Origin: Escherichia phage phT4A
Sequence record: NC_055712.1
Reading direction: 5' to 3' (one strand)
Length of the DNA stretch: 64,000 bases
Below the pieces are notes generated by a model. It saw only the letters and a list, made by a program, of their open reading frames with translations. It was not told the origin of the DNA and did not search any database. Position 1 is the first letter of the stretch, and each line of letters opens with the position of its first letter. Positions 1-64,000 of this stretch are shown here, piece after piece. Both the position numbers and the translations under genes were made by a program.

Positions 1-379
1 AAAATCTAAATGTGGCGATCGTTTTCATCTGGGAGTTATCCAGGATATGCACAGCGAATGATTGCTTAGGATCATCCCACGCAACAGAGTTAAACTCGTT
101 GTAATCGTTTGTGCTCAACATCCATATGTAAATCCCAAGATACGATCTCATTTCCTCATCGACTACAAAGCGGATCATCAAAGGATCAAACTCAAAAGCC
201 GAACCAGGTACTTTACCTCGAACCATCATATTTGCAGGAATATCAACTGCTGGGAGGTTCATTGATGGTAGTGTAACCCCTTGAACTTGTAAAGTCAAAC
301 CTTTCATGTAACTGTTATCAGGAATATCAACCCGAAAGTTTGTAGGTGAGATTTGGTTTAAAATCATTTCTGTAGACAT
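1..379 (-). CDS. gp3-like tail completion / sheath stabilizer protein (partial; 3' end lies beyond window start)
   Basis: Minus-strand ORF with ATG at 379-377 (MSTEMILNQISPTNFRVDIPDNSYMKGLTLQ...), GGAG-type RBS just upstream, open to window edge; position left of gp2/gp4 matches T4 order 3-2-4-53-5. Identity by synteny only. Confidence 0.4.
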   Translation of the reverse strand, partial: MSTEMILNQISPTNFRVDIPDNSYMKGLTLQVQGVTLPSMNLPAVDIPANMMVRGKVPGSAFEFDPLMIRFVVDEEMRSYLGIYIWMLSTNDYNEFNSVAWDDPKQSFAVHILDNSQMKTIATFRF

Positions 380-458
380 AGGATCTCCTTTCCTCTATTT
401 AGCGGGGAACGGGATCAAAGCGGCCTGACGGGGTAATATAAAAATTTGAAGAAAATGC

Positions 459-487
459 TTGACCTTTTAAAATCTTTGATCTATAAT
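459..487 (+). promoter_or_regulatory. sigma70-type early promoter TTGACC-17-TATAAT
   Basis: TTGACC at 459-464, 17-nt spacer, TATAAT at 482-487, A-rich upstream; in AT-rich intergenic region upstream of the 749 gene. Confidence 0.55.
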
Positions 488-574
488 AATTATTAATTAA
501 AATTTTATCAAAAAGATCTAACAAGATCAAGTAAAATTTAATAAATAATTTATCAAAAATTTTTAGATCTGATC

Positions 575-603
575 TTGAATTCATAAATTTTATGATCTAT
601 AAT
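575..603 (+). promoter_or_regulatory. sigma70-type early promoter TTGAAT-17-TATAAT (tandem with 459-487)
   Basis: TTGAAT 575-580, 17-nt spacer, TATAAT 598-603; GATC immediately 5' of the -35; same module recurs at 35140-35168. Confidence 0.5.
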
Positions 604-748
604 ATATTAATATTTTATTTTATCATAAATTTTTATGAAGATCAATACTTAGATCTAATAAATTTTATGCTTTTTCTGAAAACTTTTCCTTTACCCCGTC
701 ACTAAATACTGGTACTATGTTCCCATATTGGAAATCAGGAAAAACAAA

Positions 749-1538
749 ATGACTCACTTGAAAAAATTCAAAGAATTTCTGACCGAAGGTAAAACCCTCG
801 CTCGTACCGTAGCACGTGGTCAACGCGCTAAAAACTTCCGATAAACATTCAATCGGTTTTCTTCACTTCAAACATGGTTCTGATTTCGAAGTTTTAGCAC
901 CGGATTCTCACGATCTGGCATACTTCGGTAAAAACATTGTACGTTTGAAAGGTATGACTACTGGTAAAGTTCAAGCGGCTTATGTCGATTGGGCTAAAGG
1001 TACTGTTTCTTTCTACAGTGGCAATCCGGATGATGATCTGGATTTCGACAAACCAGAAAAATTCAAAGCTGCTACTCTGTATGAAGAGGCGGAAGAAAAT
1101 CTGGATCTGTATAACCAGTTAGCAGAAGATTTCGAAATCGAGATCCCTATGGATGAAGCTCTGGTGAAAGGTAAAGTTTACAAACTCCCAAGCAACGATA
1201 TGCGTCTTCTGTACACTGGGCGTTCTAAAACTAAAGCAAGCGGTGAATATGCAGTGTTTACCGTAGTTGATGCTTCCGGCAAACCTCGCCTAGTATCTGG
1301 TAAAAAATTCACCCAAGAATATAAAGGCGATATGGTTTCTAAACTGGTTCTGGCTGAATCCGAAGATCTGAATGAAGCGGCTAAAGGCATTCGCGAAAAA
1401 GTTATTGCTGTGATGGTGAAACGCGGGTTTAACGAAAAAGATGCAGAAAAGATGGTTGACAAAAACCTGAAAGATGCTATGAAAGTTAGACCTGGTGCGA
1501 CCCCTGGCAAACTTGCAGAAATAGTTAGCACCCTGTAA
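749..1538 (+). CDS. hypothetical early protein; frame interrupted at A5 tract 830-834
   Basis: ATG 749 with AGGAAA RBS gives a 31-codon ORF stopping at 842-844; the long ORF (816..1538) continues in the +1 frame with no RBS of its own. Removing one A from 830-834 fuses them (~263 aa). Flanked by promoters and terminator. No recognisable family. Confidence 0.5.
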
Positions 1539-1542
1539 AAAT

Positions 1543-1573
1543 AAAGCCCCTTCCTTTCGGTTGGGGCTTTTTG
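1543..1573. terminator. bidirectional rho-independent terminator
   Basis: Hairpin AGCCCC-ttcctttcggtt-GGGGCT (1545-1568) with A-run 5' and T-run 3'; between convergent genes; same sequence recurs at 36189-36222. Confidence 0.6.
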
Positions 1574-5287: not shown

Positions 5288-6910
5288 ATGATTATGGATT
5301 ATGAATCAATAATTGATGGAATTATGCAAAATTATCANNNNNNNNNNNNNNNNNNNNNNNNNNNNNNNNNNNNNNNNNNNNNNNNNNNNNNNNNNNNNNN
5401 NNNNNNNNNNNNNNNNNNNNNNNNNNNNNNNNNNNNNTGCAAATATACGGGTATGCAGGTTAACACCAACGCAGATACAAGCATTCCTCCTGTTCCTCCT
5501 GCAATGCCTTCCACTTATGGGGCATTACCGAGTGAATTAATCCGTGCTGATATTTCGTGCATTCCGGCAACTGTTGGTTTCGCATATACAAATATCAGTG
5601 ATGCTATGTTACAGGCATGGAACGAAACCCGTAATACGTTCAAGCTACAGTTTAACATGTTAACGGGTGCTGTACAGAATGGATTCGGGATCGCGACGAT
5701 GTTTGATGGTTTATCCGTATCGATGGAAGAAGTAATGGCGGGGGCGCTCGCATTGTCACAGCAAGCATGGCAAACTGCTATGAAAGTTTTCAGACAAGTG
5801 ATTAGCGCTGCATTTAACATTATCGGTGGTGCATGGGGATTGATTAATCAGTTCTTGCCTCAAGTAACCATCTTAGGTGTTGCGATCAACATTTACGATC
5901 TGGTGTTTGGTGATAATTCTGTTCAGACTTTGAAAGATGCGTTTAATGCAATCATCAAATCCGGACAACAAACATATGAAACCGTCATAAACGCAATATA
6001 CGGGGCCATAGGAAGCGCATACAATTACTCTGTGGAATATGTCAAAGCTGGCGCTCGCGACCTTGTGGATGCGTGTAGCGCGTTATTTGATTGGTGTTTA
6101 ACGATGTTCCAAAACGGTTGCGTTGCATTAATCGACTTATACGGTCGGATCATGCAAACATGGGCTATCCCTCCGGAAGTCCCAAACCCGTTATGGTCTG
6201 CGGTGCTGGCTATCCGTAACATCATGATGCAAATCAAACCACTTGATATAATTCTGGGCGGTAACTTCCCTGGATTCACTGCAATGGATTTGTATCAACA
6301 AGCACAGGAAAAAGTCAAGGCTTTTGTTGATGAGTCATACGAACAGATCCGAGGGCTTTATGAACAGGGGCAGGAACTTTACAAAACGTTAAAAAATCAG
6401 ATTTTCGAACGTGATACAATTCAGAGAAAATTCAACCAGTACTTAAACTGGATGTGGGGCGCTGTAACAGACGAAGCAACAGCGGCTTATCAATCTGCAT
6501 TGGATGCTGCAAACGCTGCTGTAGCTGCAACACAGGCCGCGTATGACGCTATACAGGAACAGATTGGATCTCTACAAGATGCAATGAAAGATACATACAG
6601 CATGGCGATGGAAGAATTAAAGAAATTGCCTTTGATGAGTACAATAAACGAGTTTTTAGGCTTCTGTGGTGTCGCATTTGACGATCTTCTCAAGTCATAT
6701 GAAAATGCGATTACTGGTGCTCAGTCTCTGTACAAAAATTTCATTGATAGTTCTCGCTCGTTTAAAGATCACTGCAAAGTAATCTATAACCAAATTTGTA
6801 CGTTGGCGTTGAGTAAAGTCACACAATATGTGAATAAATTGCTGTCTCTCATAGGATTAGCAATCAACTTTGGTTCGATTAGTGTATGTGTTCCAGTACT
6901 GAAATACTAA
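5288..6910 (+). CDS. hypothetical large helical protein with hydrophobic segments (ORF crosses 100-N gap; 5' part uncertain)
   Basis: Post-gap ORF 5438-6910 (~490 aa) is alpha-helical in composition with long hydrophobic stretches (e.g. ISAAFNIIGGAWGLINQFLPQVTILGVAINIY; C-terminal LLSLIGLAINFGSISVCVPVL) and an Ala/Gln-rich coiled-coil-like segment; no T4 counterpart recognised at this position. Confidence 0.4.
   Translation: MIMDYESIIDGIMQNYXXXXXXXXXXXXXXXXXXXXXXXXXXXXXXXXXXCKYTGMQVNTNADTSIPPVPPAMPSTYGALPSELIRADISCIPATVGFAYTNISDAMLQAWNETRNTFKLQFNMLTGAVQNGFGIATMFDGLSVSMEEVMAGALALSQQAWQTAMKVFRQVISAAFNIIGGAWGLINQFLPQVTILGVAINIYDLVFGDNSVQTLKDAFNAIIKSGQQTYETVINAIYGAIGSAYNYSVEYVKAGARDLVDACSALFDWCLTMFQNGCVALIDLYGRIMQTWAIPPEVPNPLWSAVLAIRNIMMQIKPLDIILGGNFPGFTAMDLYQQAQEKVKAFVDESYEQIRGLYEQGQELYKTLKNQIFERDTIQRKFNQYLNWMWGAVTDEATAAYQSALDAANAAVAATQAAYDAIQEQIGSLQDAMKDTYSMAMEELKKLPLMSTINEFLGFCGVAFDDLLKSYENAITGAQSLYKNFIDSSRSFKDHCKVIYNQICTLALSKVTQYVNKLLSLIGLAINFGSISVCVPVLKY
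5338..5437. other. assembly gap (100 N)
   Basis: Run of N. Confidence 0.95.
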
Positions 6911-6941: not shown

Positions 6942-8867
6942 ATGGCTACTGCTAAGACTAAGACTGTCAAAAAACAGATTAACCAAATCCCCGATATTTT
7001 TATCGGGGGTACTTTCGAAGAAATTAAAACAGATCTGATTGATTGGCTGGGTGGACAAGAAGAGTTTAAGGATTACGATTTTTCCGGCTCGCGAATGAAC
7101 GTACTGATCGACCTTCTGTCGTATGCTACTCTTTATATTCAGCAGATGGGTAACACGGCTCTATTTGAATCGTTTATTCGCACGGCTGCATTGCGTAGTT
7201 CTGTTGTACAGTCTGCTCAAGATCTGGGATATATGCCAGATTCTCGCACGGCTGCAAGCACAGCAGTAATGATTACGGCTGCTAACCCACTGACCCCAAC
7301 ATCGATCCGTATCCCGCGCGGTACAAAATTCATCGGTACTGTAAAGAATACAGACAGTTATTCTTTTGTTGTATCAGATGACGTTGTTATCGTTCGTGAT
7401 AGTAATAACAACTATACATCAATGCTGAACCTGGTGCAAGGCCGTTTAGTTCGTACTGAACTAATTTATGACGGTTCGAGTATCCTGATCCGAGATCCAA
7501 ACATTGACCGTAGTCAGGTACGTTTAACTGTAAACGGCGCACAATGGGAAGACTGGACAAACGAAAGCATTGTAAACGCAACAGGCGCAAGCACGATTTA
7601 CTACATGCGTGAAACTGTTGATGGACATACCGAAGTTTATTTCGGTGAAGGTGAAGCAAGTCAACAAGTGGCGGGTGGTGCATTAACCGCTGAATATATC
7701 GGGGGCTTGAAACCTGCTAATGGATCGACTATCGTTATTGAATACCTGTCAACCGATGGGGAAGCGGCTAACGGTGCAAAAGATTTTATCTATGTCGATA
7801 CATTAACCAATATTAGCATCACTAACATCGAAGAAAACCCGACTAAATCCCCTGATTATGTCGGTGCTGATGGTGGTGGTGATCCAGAAGATATCGAGCG
7901 TATTCGAGAACTGGCCCCTGTTATGCGTGAAACACAACGCCGTTGTGTAACTGCATCGGATTATGAATCTTTCCTGTCTCACAGATTTGGTTCTATCATC
8001 CAGGCGGTACAGTGCTTTACTGATAACGAAAAACCCGGTTATGCTTTCATTTCTGTTAAACCAAAGTCAGGTTTGCGCCTAACATCGGTACAGAAAGAAG
8101 ATATGCAAACGTATCTTTCGAAATATAACCTCGCGACGATCACCCCGTCGATTATGGATCCTAACTATCTGTATATTGTGCAATCTGTAAAAGTAACGTA
8201 TGATATCAGTAAGTTGACGGAATCAGAGGAATGGTTACGCGGTCAGGTTATTTCGTCGATCGACTCTTACTATACTGACAACGTTGAAATTTTCAACAAA
8301 TCTTTCAGTGTATCTAAGATGTTGACTTATGTCGATCAGTCTGATACCTCTATTATCGGTTCGGAAGCAGATATTAAATTGCTCCGTGAAATTGACAACT
8401 ATTACAGCGCCCCTATGTCTGGGATCCATTTCTTGAACCAGGTGGAATCTAAATCAATCATTTCCAGTACATTCAAGTTCACCAACGGAGAAGACGAAAG
8501 TTATGATGTTCGTTATGCTTCTACGGAAATGGATCAGGATGGTAACGCAAAAATTGTAATAGGCCCGTTCAAGGATGGGGATATTTCGATTGCTGCTTAT
8601 ACAGGCGATGACTTTGAAAAATTAACAGATGCAGGAACCCGTAATAAATATTACGAAGTTGGATCGGTTTCTCATTACACCGATTTCATTATCTTTGACC
8701 TGGGCGTTCTGAACGTATCCGCCGATAGTTTCAGCGCTGCTTATATCGAGCTAACCGCAAAGCCTCTCGAAGAAACCATTTTTACTCGCGATGGATCGTT
8801 GATCGTGTTTGAAAATGACCTGCGTCCTCAATACACCACATTGACTATGAATCCTATCAGTCAATAA
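6942..8867 (+). CDS. gp6: gp6 baseplate wedge subunit
   Basis: 641 aa; clear similarity to T4 gp6 (IPDIFIGGTFEEIK..., VGADGGGDPEDIERIRELAP, C-terminal DGSLIVFENDLRPQY). Confidence 0.9.
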   Translation: MATAKTKTVKKQINQIPDIFIGGTFEEIKTDLIDWLGGQEEFKDYDFSGSRMNVLIDLLSYATLYIQQMGNTALFESFIRTAALRSSVVQSAQDLGYMPDSRTAASTAVMITAANPLTPTSIRIPRGTKFIGTVKNTDSYSFVVSDDVVIVRDSNNNYTSMLNLVQGRLVRTELIYDGSSILIRDPNIDRSQVRLTVNGAQWEDWTNESIVNATGASTIYYMRETVDGHTEVYFGEGEASQQVAGGALTAEYIGGLKPANGSTIVIEYLSTDGEAANGAKDFIYVDTLTNISITNIEENPTKSPDYVGADGGGDPEDIERIRELAPVMRETQRRCVTASDYESFLSHRFGSIIQAVQCFTDNEKPGYAFISVKPKSGLRLTSVQKEDMQTYLSKYNLATITPSIMDPNYLYIVQSVKVTYDISKLTESEEWLRGQVISSIDSYYTDNVEIFNKSFSVSKMLTYVDQSDTSIIGSEADIKLLREIDNYYSAPMSGIHFLNQVESKSIISSTFKFTNGEDESYDVRYASTEMDQDGNAKIVIGPFKDGDISIAAYTGDDFEKLTDAGTRNKYYEVGSVSHYTDFIIFDLGVLNVSADSFSAAYIELTAKPLEETIFTRDGSLIVFENDLRPQYTTLTMNPISQ

Positions 8868-29946: not shown

Positions 29947-30594
29947 ATGAATGAATCCCAAATCAACGAAAACGGCGATATGCTTTTAATCGAAGAATGG
30001 GGTTTACCTTGCGGTGACGTTTCAGAATCTATTTTAGAATCTGTTGGGGAATCAAAAGACGGTAAATTGCGGATCGAAGGTATTTTCCTTCAAGCCGAAA
30101 AGGTTAACCGTAACCGTCGTTTGTATCCTAAAAACGTACTTGAAGAAGCAGTTAACGATTATATTAGAACTCAAGTTAACACCCGTCAAGCATTAGGTGA
30201 AATGAATCACCCTCCGCGCCCGAATGTGGATCCGCGAAATGCTTGCATCCTGATTGAAAAATTGTGGTGGAAGGGTAACGATGTTTGGGGCCGCGCTGTT
30301 GTTGTTGAAGGCGACGGTGGTGATGGTGACAAACTGGCGGCGTTGATTCGTGCTGGTTGGGTTCCTGGTGTTTCTTCCCGTGGATTAGGTAAGCTCTCCG
30401 ATTCCGGCAAAGGCTACGGCGTTGTACAAAAGGGCTTTAAATTAGCTGTAGGCGTTGATGTCGTCTGGGGGCCAAGCGCACCTGATGCATATGTTAAGCC
30501 TATAGTGGAAAATCAGCAAAGCAAACCGCTTGTTGAGAATAATAGTGCTGATGACGCTTTTCGGGAATTGTCCGAGCGTTTGAAAGGTCTATAA
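29947..30594 (+). CDS. gp21: gp21 prohead core scaffold protein and protease
   Basis: 215 aa (T4 212 aa); synteny. Confidence 0.85.
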   Translation: MNESQINENGDMLLIEEWGLPCGDVSESILESVGESKDGKLRIEGIFLQAEKVNRNRRLYPKNVLEEAVNDYIRTQVNTRQALGEMNHPPRPNVDPRNACILIEKLWWKGNDVWGRAVVVEGDGGDGDKLAALIRAGWVPGVSSRGLGKLSDSGKGYGVVQKGFKLAVGVDVVWGPSAPDAYVKPIVENQQSKPLVENNSADDAFRELSERLKGL

Positions 30595-35046: not shown

Positions 35047-35080
35047 TAGTATAACCCAACGGGGATAATATTCAATAGGT

Positions 35081-35106
35081 GGAGTAGGGAAACTTACTCC
35101 ATCTTT
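35081..35106 (+). terminator. hairpin terminator after gp24
   Basis: GGAGTAgggaaactTACTCC followed by ATCTTTT. Confidence 0.45.
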
Positions 35107-35139
35107 TAATAATTATTATAATTAATATTAAATTAGATC

Positions 35140-35168
35140 TTGAATTTATAAATGATTTATGATAAAAT
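35140..35168 (+). promoter_or_regulatory. sigma70-type promoter TTGAAT-17-TAAAAT
   Basis: Same GATC-TTGAAT module as 575-603. Confidence 0.45.
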
Positions 35169-35224
35169 TTATTAATTATAATAATTATAGATCAAACAAT
35201 TTTTGAAATCAAGTAAAAATAAAT

Positions 35225-35253
35225 TTGATTTTATAAATTAGATCATGTATAAT
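35225..35253 (+). promoter_or_regulatory. sigma70-type promoter TTGATT-17-TATAAT
   Basis: TTGATT 35225-35230, 17-nt spacer containing GATC, TATAAT 35248-35253. Confidence 0.45.
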
Positions 35254-35292
35254 TATTCTTTTAATAATATATTATATTAGATCAATTTAAAT

Positions 35293-35320
35293 TTGACTAC
35301 TAATTAATATAGTATATTAT
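35293..35320 (+). promoter_or_regulatory. sigma70-type promoter TTGACT-16-TATTAT
   Basis: About 30 nt upstream of uvsY ATG. Confidence 0.4.
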
Positions 35321-35350
35321 AGATCAACTGGGTAAATTGGTGAGTATGTT

Positions 35351-35770
35351 ATGAGTTTGAAATTAGAAGATCTACAAAATGAACTTGAAAAGGATATGCT
35401 GATAGATCCCCTCAAGTTGCAATCAGAATCAGCGGATATCCCGAAGATTTGGGCTAAATGGCTTCGATACCATTCAAACGCTAAGAAAAAATTGATCCAA
35501 CTTCATGCGAAAAAAGAAGCTGATGTGAAGGATCGTATGTTGTACTACACCGGAAGGCATGACAAAGAAATGTGCGAAGTGGTGTATACTGGGACTACTG
35601 AAATTAAAATCGCGATCGCTGGGGATCCGAAAATTGTAGAAACCAACAAGCTGATCCAGTATTATGACATGGTGGTAGATTTCACCAGCAAAGCACTGGA
35701 TATCGTCAAAAACAAAGGATACTCTATCAAAAACATGTTAGAGATCCGTAAATTAGAAAGTGGTGCATAA
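35351..35770 (+). CDS. uvsY: UvsY recombination mediator protein
   Basis: 139 aa; LEDLQNELEKDMLIDPLKLQ...YYTGRHD pattern as T4 UvsY (137 aa). Confidence 0.85.
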   Translation: MSLKLEDLQNELEKDMLIDPLKLQSESADIPKIWAKWLRYHSNAKKKLIQLHAKKEADVKDRMLYYTGRHDKEMCEVVYTGTTEIKIAIAGDPKIVETNKLIQYYDMVVDFTSKALDIVKNKGYSIKNMLEIRKLESGA

Positions 35771-41595: not shown

Positions 41596-42435
41596 TCAAC
41601 CCCAAGTGTCAGTTTTCGGTGCGTATGCTGCAACTTTAGCCACAATTTCCTTATCCAGTTCAGCTACAGATTTCTGAGGCTTACCACGGGCTTTAACTTT
41701 GATGTAGTTTGACTTAACAACAAACATCCCTTTGTTACTTGATTTCTTGATCTCGCTATCAACACCAACTTTGTTAAAGCTGATCCAAATGTCGCCGTCC
41801 ATATACTGTTTAAGAGAATCACCCATGTTCAGGATCTTCGCCATAGTAAGGGCCGCGCCTTCGTGGGTATCCATGAGAATTTCTTTAGGAACTACACGAT
41901 CGCGTTTCTGGTTCTGCTGCATAGCAATATGCACATCGTTCATAACCCATACGATATGTACGTTTTCTTTTTTGTATCCCAGCGTTTCGACATCACGTGC
42001 GATGCTTGCCAGCTTGCTCATGCCTTTTAACGTTACGTCAAAGATGAGGTTAGGTTTACGATCTTCTGGTGCTGCCATAATACCGGAATAAACACGGTTT
42101 TGGTTTTTGTTGGAAATGTTGAAAACGTCGGCGATCACATGATGGAGGGTAGATACGTTTTCTGGGTTTTTGAGGTTCATTGTTTTGACATCATGACCCG
42201 TTTGTTTCTTGATCTCTGCTGCGAGTTTATCGCTACCCATTACAAGTTTTTTCAGGGCGTCAACGTCCAGGGTAATACCTTCGATGCCTAGCAGTTTTTC
42301 CAGTGTGAATCCTTTACCGGAACCAGCACCGCCAGCCAGAATAACAACCTGACCGAACTTAGGATAAGCACGGCCCCCGAAGGTGATCAGCGCTTCGGTT
42401 AAGGTGCTTTCTGTGAATTGTTTAAATGACTTCAT
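41596..42435 (-). CDS. P-loop NMP-kinase-like protein
   Basis: 279 aa; ILAGGAGSGKGFT resembles the adenylate/NMP kinase P-loop GxPGxGKGT; function inferred from motif only. Confidence 0.4.
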   Translation of the reverse strand: MKSFKQFTESTLTEALITFGGRAYPKFGQVVILAGGAGSGKGFTLEKLLGIEGITLDVDALKKLVMGSDKLAAEIKKQTGHDVKTMNLKNPENVSTLHHVIADVFNISNKNQNRVYSGIMAAPEDRKPNLIFDVTLKGMSKLASIARDVETLGYKKENVHIVWVMNDVHIAMQQNQKRDRVVPKEILMDTHEGAALTMAKILNMGDSLKQYMDGDIWISFNKVGVDSEIKKSSNKGMFVVKSNYIKVKARGKPQKSVAELDKEIVAKVAAYAPKTDTWG

Positions 42436-51452: not shown

Positions 51453-51711
51453 AAGTAGAAAAANNNNNNNNNNNNNNNNNNNNNNNNNNNNNNNNNNNNN
51501 NNNNNNNNNNNNNNNNNNNNNNNNNNNNNNNNNNNNNNNNNNNNNNNNNNNNNNNNNNNNNNNAAAACGTAGGTTATGGACAGGATATACCCTGGAGGCT
51601 TTACAGGCCGACCCAGAACGTTCTAAGCTACTTCCTTACATTGATGTTCTGATTGATGGTAAGTATGAAAAAGATTTGCCAACAGAAAAAGCCGTTTCGC
51701 GGTTCAGATAA
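51449..51711 (+). CDS. nrdG: NrdG anaerobic ribonucleotide reductase activase (fragmented by assembly gap)
   Basis: ATG 51449 overlaps gp49 stop; post-gap frame encodes LWTGYTLEALQADPERSKLLPYIDVLIDGKYEKDLPTEKAVSRFR, matching the NrdG C-terminus; the radical-SAM CxxxCxxC region is missing in the gap. Confidence 0.55.
51464..51563. other. assembly gap (100 N)
   Basis: Run of N inside nrdG. Confidence 0.95.
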
Positions 51712-58843: not shown

Positions 58844-58943
58844 NNNNNNNNNNNNNNNNNNNNNNNNNNNNNNNNNNNNNNNNNNNNNNNNNNNNNNNNN
58901 NNNNNNNNNNNNNNNNNNNNNNNNNNNNNNNNNNNNNNNNNNN
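58844..58943. other. assembly gap (100 N)
   Basis: Run of N; probably hides gp35 3' end, a gp36-like gene and the first codons of the next fibre gene. Confidence 0.9.
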
Positions 58944-63339: not shown

Positions 63340-64000
63340 ATGGCTNNNNNNNNNNNNNNNNNNNNNNNNNNNNNNNNNNNNNNNNNNNNNNNNNNNNNNN
63401 NNNNNNNNNNNNNNNNNNNNNNNNNNNNNNNNNNNNNNNNNNNNNGGCTGATTTAGCAAAAATTCAATTCCTACGTAGCACAGTTACGGGGAAAACACCT
63501 ACTACAAGTCAGCTTGCAGATGGTGAACTGGCGATCAACATGGCTGATTATGCCATTTACACGAAAAATGGTTCTTCGATCGTTCAGTTAGCGGGTAAAG
63601 GTATCCCAGAAACAAATACCAAAAAATTAACAGTTGATGGGCCTAGTGCTCTTAATGATACCGTTACCGTAGCGGAAGGTAAAACTATTACTTTCACCAA
63701 CGAGGATTTAAGTGGTGGAATAACTCGTCATATCGTTGGCAAATGCGCCACTAATGATGGTTGGTACATCGGTTCCGGTGGTACAAGCAACAATGGTATT
63801 CTTGAAATCGGTACTATTGATGACGGCGTTGAAACCATCCAGATCGTACAGCGCGGCGCAGGCAACGTTGAAGCCAGAAAGTTAGTCTTGCTTGATGGTT
63901 CGGGTAATACGAATCTTCCTGGTGATTTAAGATTAACCACCAATAAAGCTGTTAAAATTTCGAATGGAAGCACTCTTACACTAGAAATGGGCGTAGGTGC
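63340..64000 (+). CDS. second gp37-like distal tail fibre gene (partial; interrupted by 100-N run; open to window end)
   Basis: ATGGCT before the gap, then GGCTGATTTAGCAAAAATTCAATTCCTACGTAGC = (M)ADLAKIQFLRS..., same N-terminal module as 58944 copy, then a divergent sequence. Confidence 0.7.
63346..63445. other. assembly gap (100 N), possibly spurious
   Basis: Flanks share GGCT; joining them gives ATG GCT GAT TTA ... in frame with the T4 gp37 N-terminus. Confidence 0.85.
63446..63717 (+). repeat. fibre 5' module, copy 2
   Basis: See 58944-59215. Confidence 0.85.

Follow-up and report, generated by a model that had tools for sequence, protein, structure and literature searches.

What is a plus-strand gene with early-type promoters of its own doing between genes 3 and 2, among the late genes of a T4-like phage? 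The question arose from a first-pass annotation of a 64,000-nucleotide stretch of Escherichia phage phT4A (NC_055712.1; hereafter, the window), which described two tandem sigma-70-type promoters, a single gene on the strand opposite to gp3 and gp2, and a bidirectional terminator as a moron-like insert. All of these components are present (Table 1), in the gene order gp3(-)/X(+)/gp2(-)/gp4(-)/gp53(+)/gp5(+), where X denotes the inserted gene. The RefSeq record of phage KP27 agrees, listing at the same place two plus-strand promoters, the coding sequence KP27_206, and a terminator on both strands; thus, the unit is not new as an annotation. Using the region from 380 to 1600 as a query against a phage collection, 205 phage records were matched, 129 of them at 99% identity or more. 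The latter are Klebsiella Slopekviruses (KP15, KP27, PMBT1, Miro, and the Roth series), and RB43/RB16-like phages share 80 to 90% identity with the region. By these matches, the window is that of a T4-like phage, a Slopekvirus (KP15/KP27-like). Four masked runs of 100 N are present in the window.

Table 1. Features of the interval between gp3 and gp2, with positions in the window
Feature	Position	Strand	Basis or remark
Divergent intergenic region	379..748		Between gp3 start (minus strand) and gene X start
Late-promoter-like box CTAAATA, 24 nt upstream of gp3 start	396..402	-	Box also in L021
Inverted repeat, left arm TGACGGGGTAA	426..436		Brackets AT-rich promoter block
Promoter P1, TTGACC-17-TATAAT (11/12), GATC just before	459..487	+	Scan; annotated in KP27
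Candidate sigma-70-like site TTGATA-17-TATTAT (10/12), facing gp3 and gp1 (dNMP kinase)	483..511	-	Scan
Promoter P2, TTGAAT-17-TATAAT (10/12)	575..603	+	Scan; annotated in KP27
Proximal promoter-like site P3, TTTACC-17-TACTAT (8/12, T4-early type)	690..718	+	Position-homolog in RB16
Inverted repeat, right arm TTACCCCGTCA, overlapping P3 -35	691..701		Brackets AT-rich promoter block
Late-promoter-like box CTAAATAC in P3 spacer, 41 nt upstream of ATG	702..709	+	TAAATA core invariant in five lineages
Gene X (KP27_206 ortholog), ATG 749, stop TAA 1536-1538	749..1538	+	262 aa with A4
Codons 1-13, MTHLKKFKEFLTE, propeptide like T4 capsid-targeting sequence (CTS), ending at conserved L-T-E	749..787	+	Family alignment; T4 comparison
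A5 homopolymer, A4 in three aligned relatives	830..834	+	Frameshifting insertion or sequencing error
Bidirectional intrinsic terminator hairpin AAAGCCCC..TTCGG..GGGGCTTT plus T-run	1543..1572 (hairpin 1543-1570)		Folding; KP27 annotation, both strands

In the window, gene X is split into a stretch of 31 codons (749 to 844) and a second frame (816 to 1538), the run of five A's leading to a premature TAA at 842 to 844. Roth22, Snake_ER16, and PMBT1 have four A's at this point and an intact 262-amino-acid open reading frame, so that both the frameshift and a product of about 263 residues after its repair had been predicted correctly. The frameshift reflects either an error in sequencing the homopolymer or the genuine inactivation of a gene that the phage can do without. 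It is quite possible, at somewhat less than an even chance, that the latter applies and the isolate carries a pseudogene, a dispensable accessory gene having been inactivated by a true +1 insertion in the A-run: the run differs from that in the three aligned relatives, no record among the 205 matches in the phage collection is identical (100%) over the region, and the internal proteins of T4, to which the product is compared below, are dispensable in laboratory hosts, as established by T4 genetics. The masked runs in the window can be counted on the same side. Homopolymer length errors are, however, the commonest sequencing artifact, and the remainder of the open reading frame is free of other lesions and approximately 99.9% identical to the intact copies. 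Programmed frameshifting at the A-run was rejected as unnecessary, since four A's suffice to keep the reading frame open in the three aligned relatives.

To establish the age of the insert, its presence or absence in related genomes was examined, as had been proposed. Genes 3 and 2 of T4 are adjacent, with a gap of 106 nt and, as claimed, nothing between them, and the Aeromonas Biquartavirus UP87 likewise has them side by side. The gp2 match extends as far as the tail completion gene in two Jiaodavirus records. Pectobacterium phage POP12 was discarded as an outgroup for the insertion site, as its genome has undergone rearrangement and gp2 is followed by a gene other than gp3. RB16, RB43, and the Slopekviruses examined (KP15/KP27 group) all have gene X in the gp3-gp2 interval, as do three metagenomic contigs with products of only 47 to 57% identity; every genome and metagenomic contig of the RB43/RB16/KP15 clade that was examined has it at this locus. 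The coding G+C content of 0.40 to 0.44 is the same as that of the flanks, and the dN/dS of the gene is 0.10 against RB16 and 0.14 against RB43, with 0.06 between RB16 and RB43. Synteny across the clade, host-like composition, and dN/dS values of 0.06 to 0.14 together indicate that the insertion is old. On these comparisons the unit was acquired long ago by the RB43/KP15 clade, in which it has become fixed and is under selection; it is not a recent moron. Of the moron-like description, the autonomous promoters and terminator and the position between genes that are adjacent in T4 and UP87 stand, whereas a recent or private origin does not. A well-characterized conserved homolog at this position in related phages had been named as the finding that would count against that description; the homolog is indeed conserved there but is uncharacterized.

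A sigma-70 scan returned P1 and P2 as the best two promoter matches within the first 3.6 kb. They are the two copies of a tandem duplication of approximately 116 nt, with 458 to 488 and 574 to 604 being 77% identical. As a control for chance, plus-strand matches were counted in dinucleotide shuffles of 421 to 748: two or more matches of at least 10/12 occurred in 2.6% of shuffles, and a match of at least 11/12 in 1.5%. Closer to the gene, the site in RB16 that corresponds in position to P3 is a stronger match (TTGACC-17-TATCAT, 10/12), and both P3 hexamers as well as the TAAATA core in its spacer are kept in all five aligned lineages. The arrangement appears to be an ancestral composite early and late promoter to which two strong sigma-70 promoters were added in the Slopekviruses. 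P3 with its embedded late box and the minus-strand sigma-70-like sites were absent from the first-pass annotation. Two small open reading frames annotated within the AT-rich block in some records (399 to 584, minus strand; 592 to 705, plus strand) were judged to be spurious, the DNA being promoter DNA.

The block, which forms the core (421 to 710) of the divergent intergenic region, has a G+C content below 25% (18 to 25%) and is one of only two long stretches this AT rich in the window; the other lies at 35061 to 35380, and TTGATCTATAAT motifs are common to both. The bracketing inverted repeat is G+C rich and perfect over 11 nt, and its extended arms (426 to 467 and 660 to 701) are 74% complementary. 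RB16, RB43, and the metagenomic contig L021 have the same arrangement with a different G+C-rich inverted repeat (GAGCGAAGCGA/TCGCTTCGCTC in RB16 and L021). GATC occurs nine times in 360 nt, against about 2.5 expected at the average density of the window. RNA of T4 gene 1 is early (PMC9697503 supplement), and the block may thus act in both directions. These properties raise the question of whether the locus is primarily a DNA-level element, that is, a replication origin (promoter plus unwinding element) or a bidirectional early promoter hub serving gene 1, with the gene being incidental. The low G+C content, the density of GATC, the bracketing by repeats that differ in sequence between lineages, and the minus-strand promoter-like sites facing gp3 and gp1 all accord with this, and T4 oriE is located nearby, in gene 5. 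We nevertheless regard it as very improbable, as no iterons or genes for origin proteins were found, an origin function is not demonstrated by sequence, the second block with the same motifs suggests a general type of promoter cluster, and the strong purifying selection on gene X means that the gene is not incidental. A role of the block at the DNA level is in any case compatible with, and not opposed to, the explanation in terms of an internal protein that is developed below.

The late-promoter-like box within P3 varies around its invariant core, being CTAAATAC in the window, AATAAATAG in RB16 and RB43, CTAAATAG in the metagenomic contig L023, and a perfect TATAAATA in L021. TAAATA is strongly biased in strand across the late-gene window, with 39 copies on the plus strand and 7 on the minus strand, and the bias of CTAAATA is 10:1. 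Four of the 11 copies of CTAAATA lie 24 to 41 nt upstream of a start, namely, those of gene X, gp53, the open reading frame at 6942, and, on the minus strand, gp3. The CTAAATA form is typical of Aeh1 and rare among late promoters of the RB43 type (PMC1524935); the box at gene X in the window is of this weaker form, in comparison with the perfect TATAAATA of L021. A description of the gene as early only is probably incomplete, and judging from its upstream sequences it is probably transcribed both early and late.

Downstream of the gene, the hairpin at 1543 to 1570 has folding energies of -16.9 kcal/mol on the plus strand and -16.4 kcal/mol on the minus strand (z of about -3), with an A-run on its 5' side and a T-run on its 3' side, and sits within the 36-nt gap ahead of the convergent gp2 stop. 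It escaped a simple scanner on account of its internal bulges; the terminator that had been called bidirectional in the first-pass annotation is nonetheless corroborated by folding and by the KP27 record. Many promoters annotated in KP27 are paired with overlapping terminators as composites of the form AAAGCCC-TTGACT/TTGCAT-loop-GGGGCTTT-TATATT (promoter-early stem-loops, or PeSLs, with the -35 box inside the hairpin). The hairpin below gene X has the stem and the TTCGG loop of the phage's own PeSLs with degenerate -35 and -10 boxes, and is kept in L021. It is best called a PeSL-type stem-loop that is predicted to terminate transcription in both directions where two units converge.

The body of the protein offers little by way of relatives. 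Protein X had no match in Pfam even at an E value of 10 and none in the PDB by sequence below an E value of 0.35, and in PHROGs it matched unknown-function families only (7322 over the full length and 9411 over residues 214 to 259). A search of 5.8 billion proteins returned 14 clusters, all uncharacterized; a profile search of 1.84 billion representatives gave 13 matches with no named relative, and fold searches with the model of the protein gave no interpretable or informative match. Rfam and tRNA scans were empty. The statement that the product belongs to no recognizable family consequently holds for the protein body by Pfam, PDB, and fold searches, but not for its N terminus, which matches the T4 CTS. 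The AF2 model (pLDDT, 74) comprises a disordered N terminus (residues 1 to 15), a beta-rich domain with an acidic helix (20 to 127), a small beta domain (143 to 200), and a three-helix bundle (214 to 261), joined by low-confidence linkers at 127 to 136 and 204 to 211. The constant part of the family is a core of approximately 130 residues with strongly conserved motifs, e.g., DSHDLAYFGK; the middle domain can be absent, and C-terminal modules of at least three unrelated types are swapped among relatives. RB43-like phages and an Acinetobacter phage also encode the C-terminal module of protein X in a small gene of its own, and the core domain recurs at the C terminus of gp193 of Aeromonas phage CC2.

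The N termini of the family follow the pattern MK[STNQ]FK[EQ][LFYM][LIM]xE, followed by S, V, or G. T4 IPI, annotated as an internal virion protein, begins MKTFKEF...ITE/A, and T4 IPII and IPIII begin MKTYQEFIAE/A. The first 10 residues of IPIII constitute the CTS, with residues 4 and 7 responsible for targeting and residues 8 and 10 for processing (reviewed in PMC9026906). Across the family, residue 4 is an invariant F, residue 7 is hydrophobic, residue 8 is L, I, or M, and residue 10 is an invariant E; the [L/I]-x-E cleavage site is kept in all 14 members. In the Slopekviruses the motif is offset by three residues, as the annotated ATG, which is backed by a Shine-Dalgarno sequence, puts MTH ahead of it, and the exact T4 register is obtained only when counting from a TTG at 758 that has no Shine-Dalgarno sequence.

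To gauge the specificity of the motif, open reading frames of at least 35 amino acids in all six frames of the T4 genome were searched with the expression MK.[FY][KQ][ED][FLIM]. Five were found: IPI, IPII, IPIII, the 54-amino-acid gp61.1 (MKTFKEFIKE), and Td (MKQYQDLIKD, in which position 10 is D instead of E). The motif is short, its specificity is incomplete, and the match to Td, the T4 thymidylate synthase, demonstrates that it can arise by chance. The same search of a KP27-equivalent genome retrieved two open reading frames, gene X and a zeta-toxin-like P-loop protein of 279 amino acids (window 42435 to 41596, minus strand; PF06414, E value of 2.8e-7). The latter has the N terminus MKSFKQFTESTLTE, then A, and a AATAAATA late box upstream. 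The window also encodes a homolog of the gp21-type prohead protease at 29947 to 30594 (phrog_207, head maturation protease; E value of 9.7e-74).

In T4, a separate GTTTAC-N17-TAYWAT promoter with an inverted repeat precedes each of ipI, ipII, and ipIII, and ipI lies four genes from gene 3 (ipI-57B-57A-1-3-2). All three were classed as "early-RNA_late-Protein" in a T4 time course (PMC9697503 supplement). The internal proteins of T-even phages were described by Rao and Black as diverse defense-countering proteins that have only the CTS in common (PMC3012670). Given the CTS-like N terminus, an early gene among late genes would be the normal pattern of a T4 internal-protein gene and not an oddity. 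Protein X, at 262 amino acids with a net charge of about +2 and an acidic linker, is not the small, basic protein by which T4-type internal proteins are recognized; Alt, with its 682 amino acids, shows that size is not strictly defining. A literature search found no virion proteomics for any family member or for a Slopekvirus or RB43-like virion, and no transcriptome of the RB43/KP15 clade.

Weighing the offset ATG, the shortness of the motif, the size and charge of the protein, the weaker late box, and the outcome of the literature search, we place slightly better than even confidence in protein X being a new, unusually large, and modular internal (injected head) protein of the T4 type. The same considerations leave some room for an early host-takeover or antidefense protein that is expressed from P1 and P2 during the first minutes of infection, stays in the cytoplasm, perhaps binding a host protein via an SH3/Tudor-like domain, and is never packaged. 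Such a protein would fit the strong promoters P1 and P2 equally well, and the resemblance to the CTS would then be coincidental; we consider this unlikely, though not negligibly so.

With protein X taken as an internal protein, we infer the timing of its expression, its packaging, cleavage, and injection, and its target as follows. Soon after infection, host RNA polymerase would transcribe the gene from P1, P2, and the ancestral proximal P3, and the TAAATA late box inside P3 would allow transcription to be continued by the gp55 late polymerase. The hairpin would end this transcript as well as the converging gp4-gp2 late transcript. The N-terminal propeptide would take the 262-amino-acid product into the scaffold core of the prohead, where the gp21-type protease would cut it off after the conserved L/I-x-E (LTE13, followed by G) and might make further cuts at the LAE126 and LAE203 junctions, which are likewise conserved. 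The mature domains would remain in the head, enter the next host with the DNA, and most likely counter host defense there, as does T4 IPI*. The unit would accordingly represent a gene cassette of the internal-protein type belonging to the T4-like RB43/KP15 clade.

Beyond LTE13, L-x-E sites are conserved at LAE126 (12 of 14 members), LAE203 (13 of 13), and LNE209 (10 of 12), and LTE13, LAE126, and LAE203/LNE209 are located at low-confidence linkers and at the joins of alternative modules. This distribution is compatible with a more speculative extension, which we think improbable, in which protein X is a poly-internal-protein precursor that is packaged via its CTS and cut by the protease at L-x-E sites, LNE209 being an alternative to LAE203, into two or three small injected domains, the last position serving as a slot for swappable cargo. 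Recombination at conserved linkers is equally compatible with the placement of these sites.

Slopekviruses and RB43-like phages are frequent isolates in phage therapy work directed at Klebsiella, Enterobacter, and Cronobacter. In T4, the range of restriction-armed hosts open to infection is set by the injected internal proteins; the KP27 regions examined carry no annotation of such a protein. If protein X and the zeta-toxin-like protein are packaged and injected, they would be candidate determinants of host range and antidefense and would provide a handle for packaging foreign proteins. If the precursor is in addition cut into several domains, the locus would serve a therapeutic Klebsiella/Enterobacter phage clade as a modular platform from which injected effectors are delivered; if the protein is not packaged, X is an already annotated accessory gene without an assigned function.

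Among known systems, the unit resembles the morons of lambdoid and other temperate phages in being an autonomous promoter-gene-terminator unit between genes that are adjacent in relatives. It differs from them in that the phage is virulent, the composition of the unit is not atypical, and its distribution among close relatives is not patchy, the unit being conserved in the RB43/RB16 (Pseudotevenvirus) and KP15/KP27 (Slopekvirus) groups and in metagenomic relatives; in addition, expression of the gene probably serves the infection cycle of the phage itself and does not take place from a prophage. A second comparison is with the PeSL cassettes of T4-like phages (Arbiol et al. 2010, PMC2839356; Comeau et al. 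2014, PMC4122927). The likeness here lies in a small accessory gene between strong sigma-70-like promoters and a stem-loop terminator, inside a conserved block, and in the downstream hairpin, which is of the sequence type of the phage's own PeSLs (AAAGCCC...GGGGCTTT). In a PeSL proper, however, a stem-loop terminator and a sigma-70-like promoter are directly fused or overlap, and a Shine-Dalgarno sequence and a start codon come next, whereas P1 and P2 lack a fused compact stem-loop, the arms of the bracketing inverted repeat being approximately 250 nt apart, and the downstream hairpin has lost or never had -35 and -10 boxes. Recent shuffling of the whole unit is likewise not seen, as only the C-terminal module varies.

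The third comparison, with IPI, IPII, and IPIII of T4, carries the reading of protein X as an internal protein. The T4 proteins are CTS-bearing, gp21-processed head proteins that are injected, and IPI* inhibits the GmrS/GmrD restriction enzyme. Similarity of sequence or fold between them and protein X ends after the first 10 or so residues, and protein X has 262 amino acids in three domains, compared with 95 to 193 amino acids, and is not basic. Gene X also runs antiparallel to genes 3 and 2, its family has alternative C-terminal modules, and packaging of its product is a prediction. The T4 ip genes are early as RNA and late as protein, and for gene X the corresponding early-type promoters and late box are predicted from sequence. 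What the two share is an N-terminal propeptide motif including the L/I-x-E site, a sigma-70-type promoter directly upstream and an inverted repeat for each gene, and the status of accessory genes that vary between related phages, with T4 ipI lying in the very neighborhood that gene X occupies.

The AT-rich block (421-710) upstream of the plus-strand gene at 749-1538 carries a sigma-70-like site on the minus strand which could provide early transcription of the kind that T4 gene 1 receives. Two short hypothetical proteins annotated within this block in some public records look like spurious gene calls. The tetranucleotide GATC occurs 439 times in the whole window, compared with 236 expected from base composition (approximately 1.9-fold excess), and is densest at 400-760; the AT-rich promoter block of 360 nt holds nine copies, of which several lie directly 5' of -10 hexamers (GATCTATAAT). 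An unknown modification has been reported in KP15/KP27 DNA (PMC5219037), and DNA methyltransferases are annotated in the KP27 record.

A second block with a G+C content below 25% was identified, sharing with 421-710 promoter motifs of the TTGATCTATAAT type in both orientations. Its minus-strand promoters (e.g., 35212 to 35184) face a hairpin (GGAGTA..TACTCC) and the 3' end of a gp24-like gene; Rfam and tRNA scans of this block returned no match. The window also contains four runs of N, the first of which depresses the apparent G+C content at approximately 5.3 to 5.4 kb and could pass for an AT-rich block. In composites of the PeSL type (promoter-early stem-loop of T4-like phages) from this phage group, the terminator hairpin contains the -35 hexamer, with the tight consensus AAAGCCC-TTGACT/TTGCAT-loop-GGGGCTTT-(g)TATATT.

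Features of the window and of related phage genomes
Feature	Position	Strand	Remark
TTGATA-17-TATTAT	483-511	-	10/12; faces gp3 and dNMP kinase gene
Hypothetical protein, 61 aa	399-584	-	e.g., Roth22
Hypothetical protein, 37 aa	592-705	+	e.g., Roth22
Second AT-rich block	35061-35380		
Zeta-toxin-like gene	41596-42435	-	279 aa
N runs, each exactly 100	5338-5437, 51464-51563, 58844-58943, 63346-63445		Masked or unresolved sequence
PeSL-type composites	KP27 loci L009-L012, e.g., L009 10501-10533, L011 31987-32019		
CC2 gp193	L006 1856-2770		304 aa
T4 gene 61.1	NC_000866 18966-19130	-	54 aa, hypothetical protein

Parts of the 749-1538 product recur in other proteins. Its family's conserved core domain has a homologue in the final ~90 residues of gp193 of Aeromonas phage CC2 (PDSHDTKYFGK...); INE|S, a junction that some family members share, precedes these residues. 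The C-terminal module of the 749-1538 product is also a stand-alone gene in RB43 (at ~10.7 kb) and Acinetobacter phage BUCT628.

The capsid-targeting motif of the T4 internal proteins (IPs) was likewise found elsewhere. In T4 itself, the N terminus of gp61.1 (MKTFKEFIKE) matches it perfectly. Td, which starts MKQYQDLIKD, comes close to the motif, position 10 being D. In the window, a second gene has a late-promoter box (AATAAATA) ~30 nt upstream, and its product contains a P-loop kinase domain of the zeta-toxin type (PF06414; E value, 2.8e-7). This product is a candidate zeta-like kinase that would be packaged in the capsid and injected. Its N terminus, MKSFKQFTESTLTE|A, is close to that of T4 IPI, MKTFKEFTSTTTPVSTITE|A.
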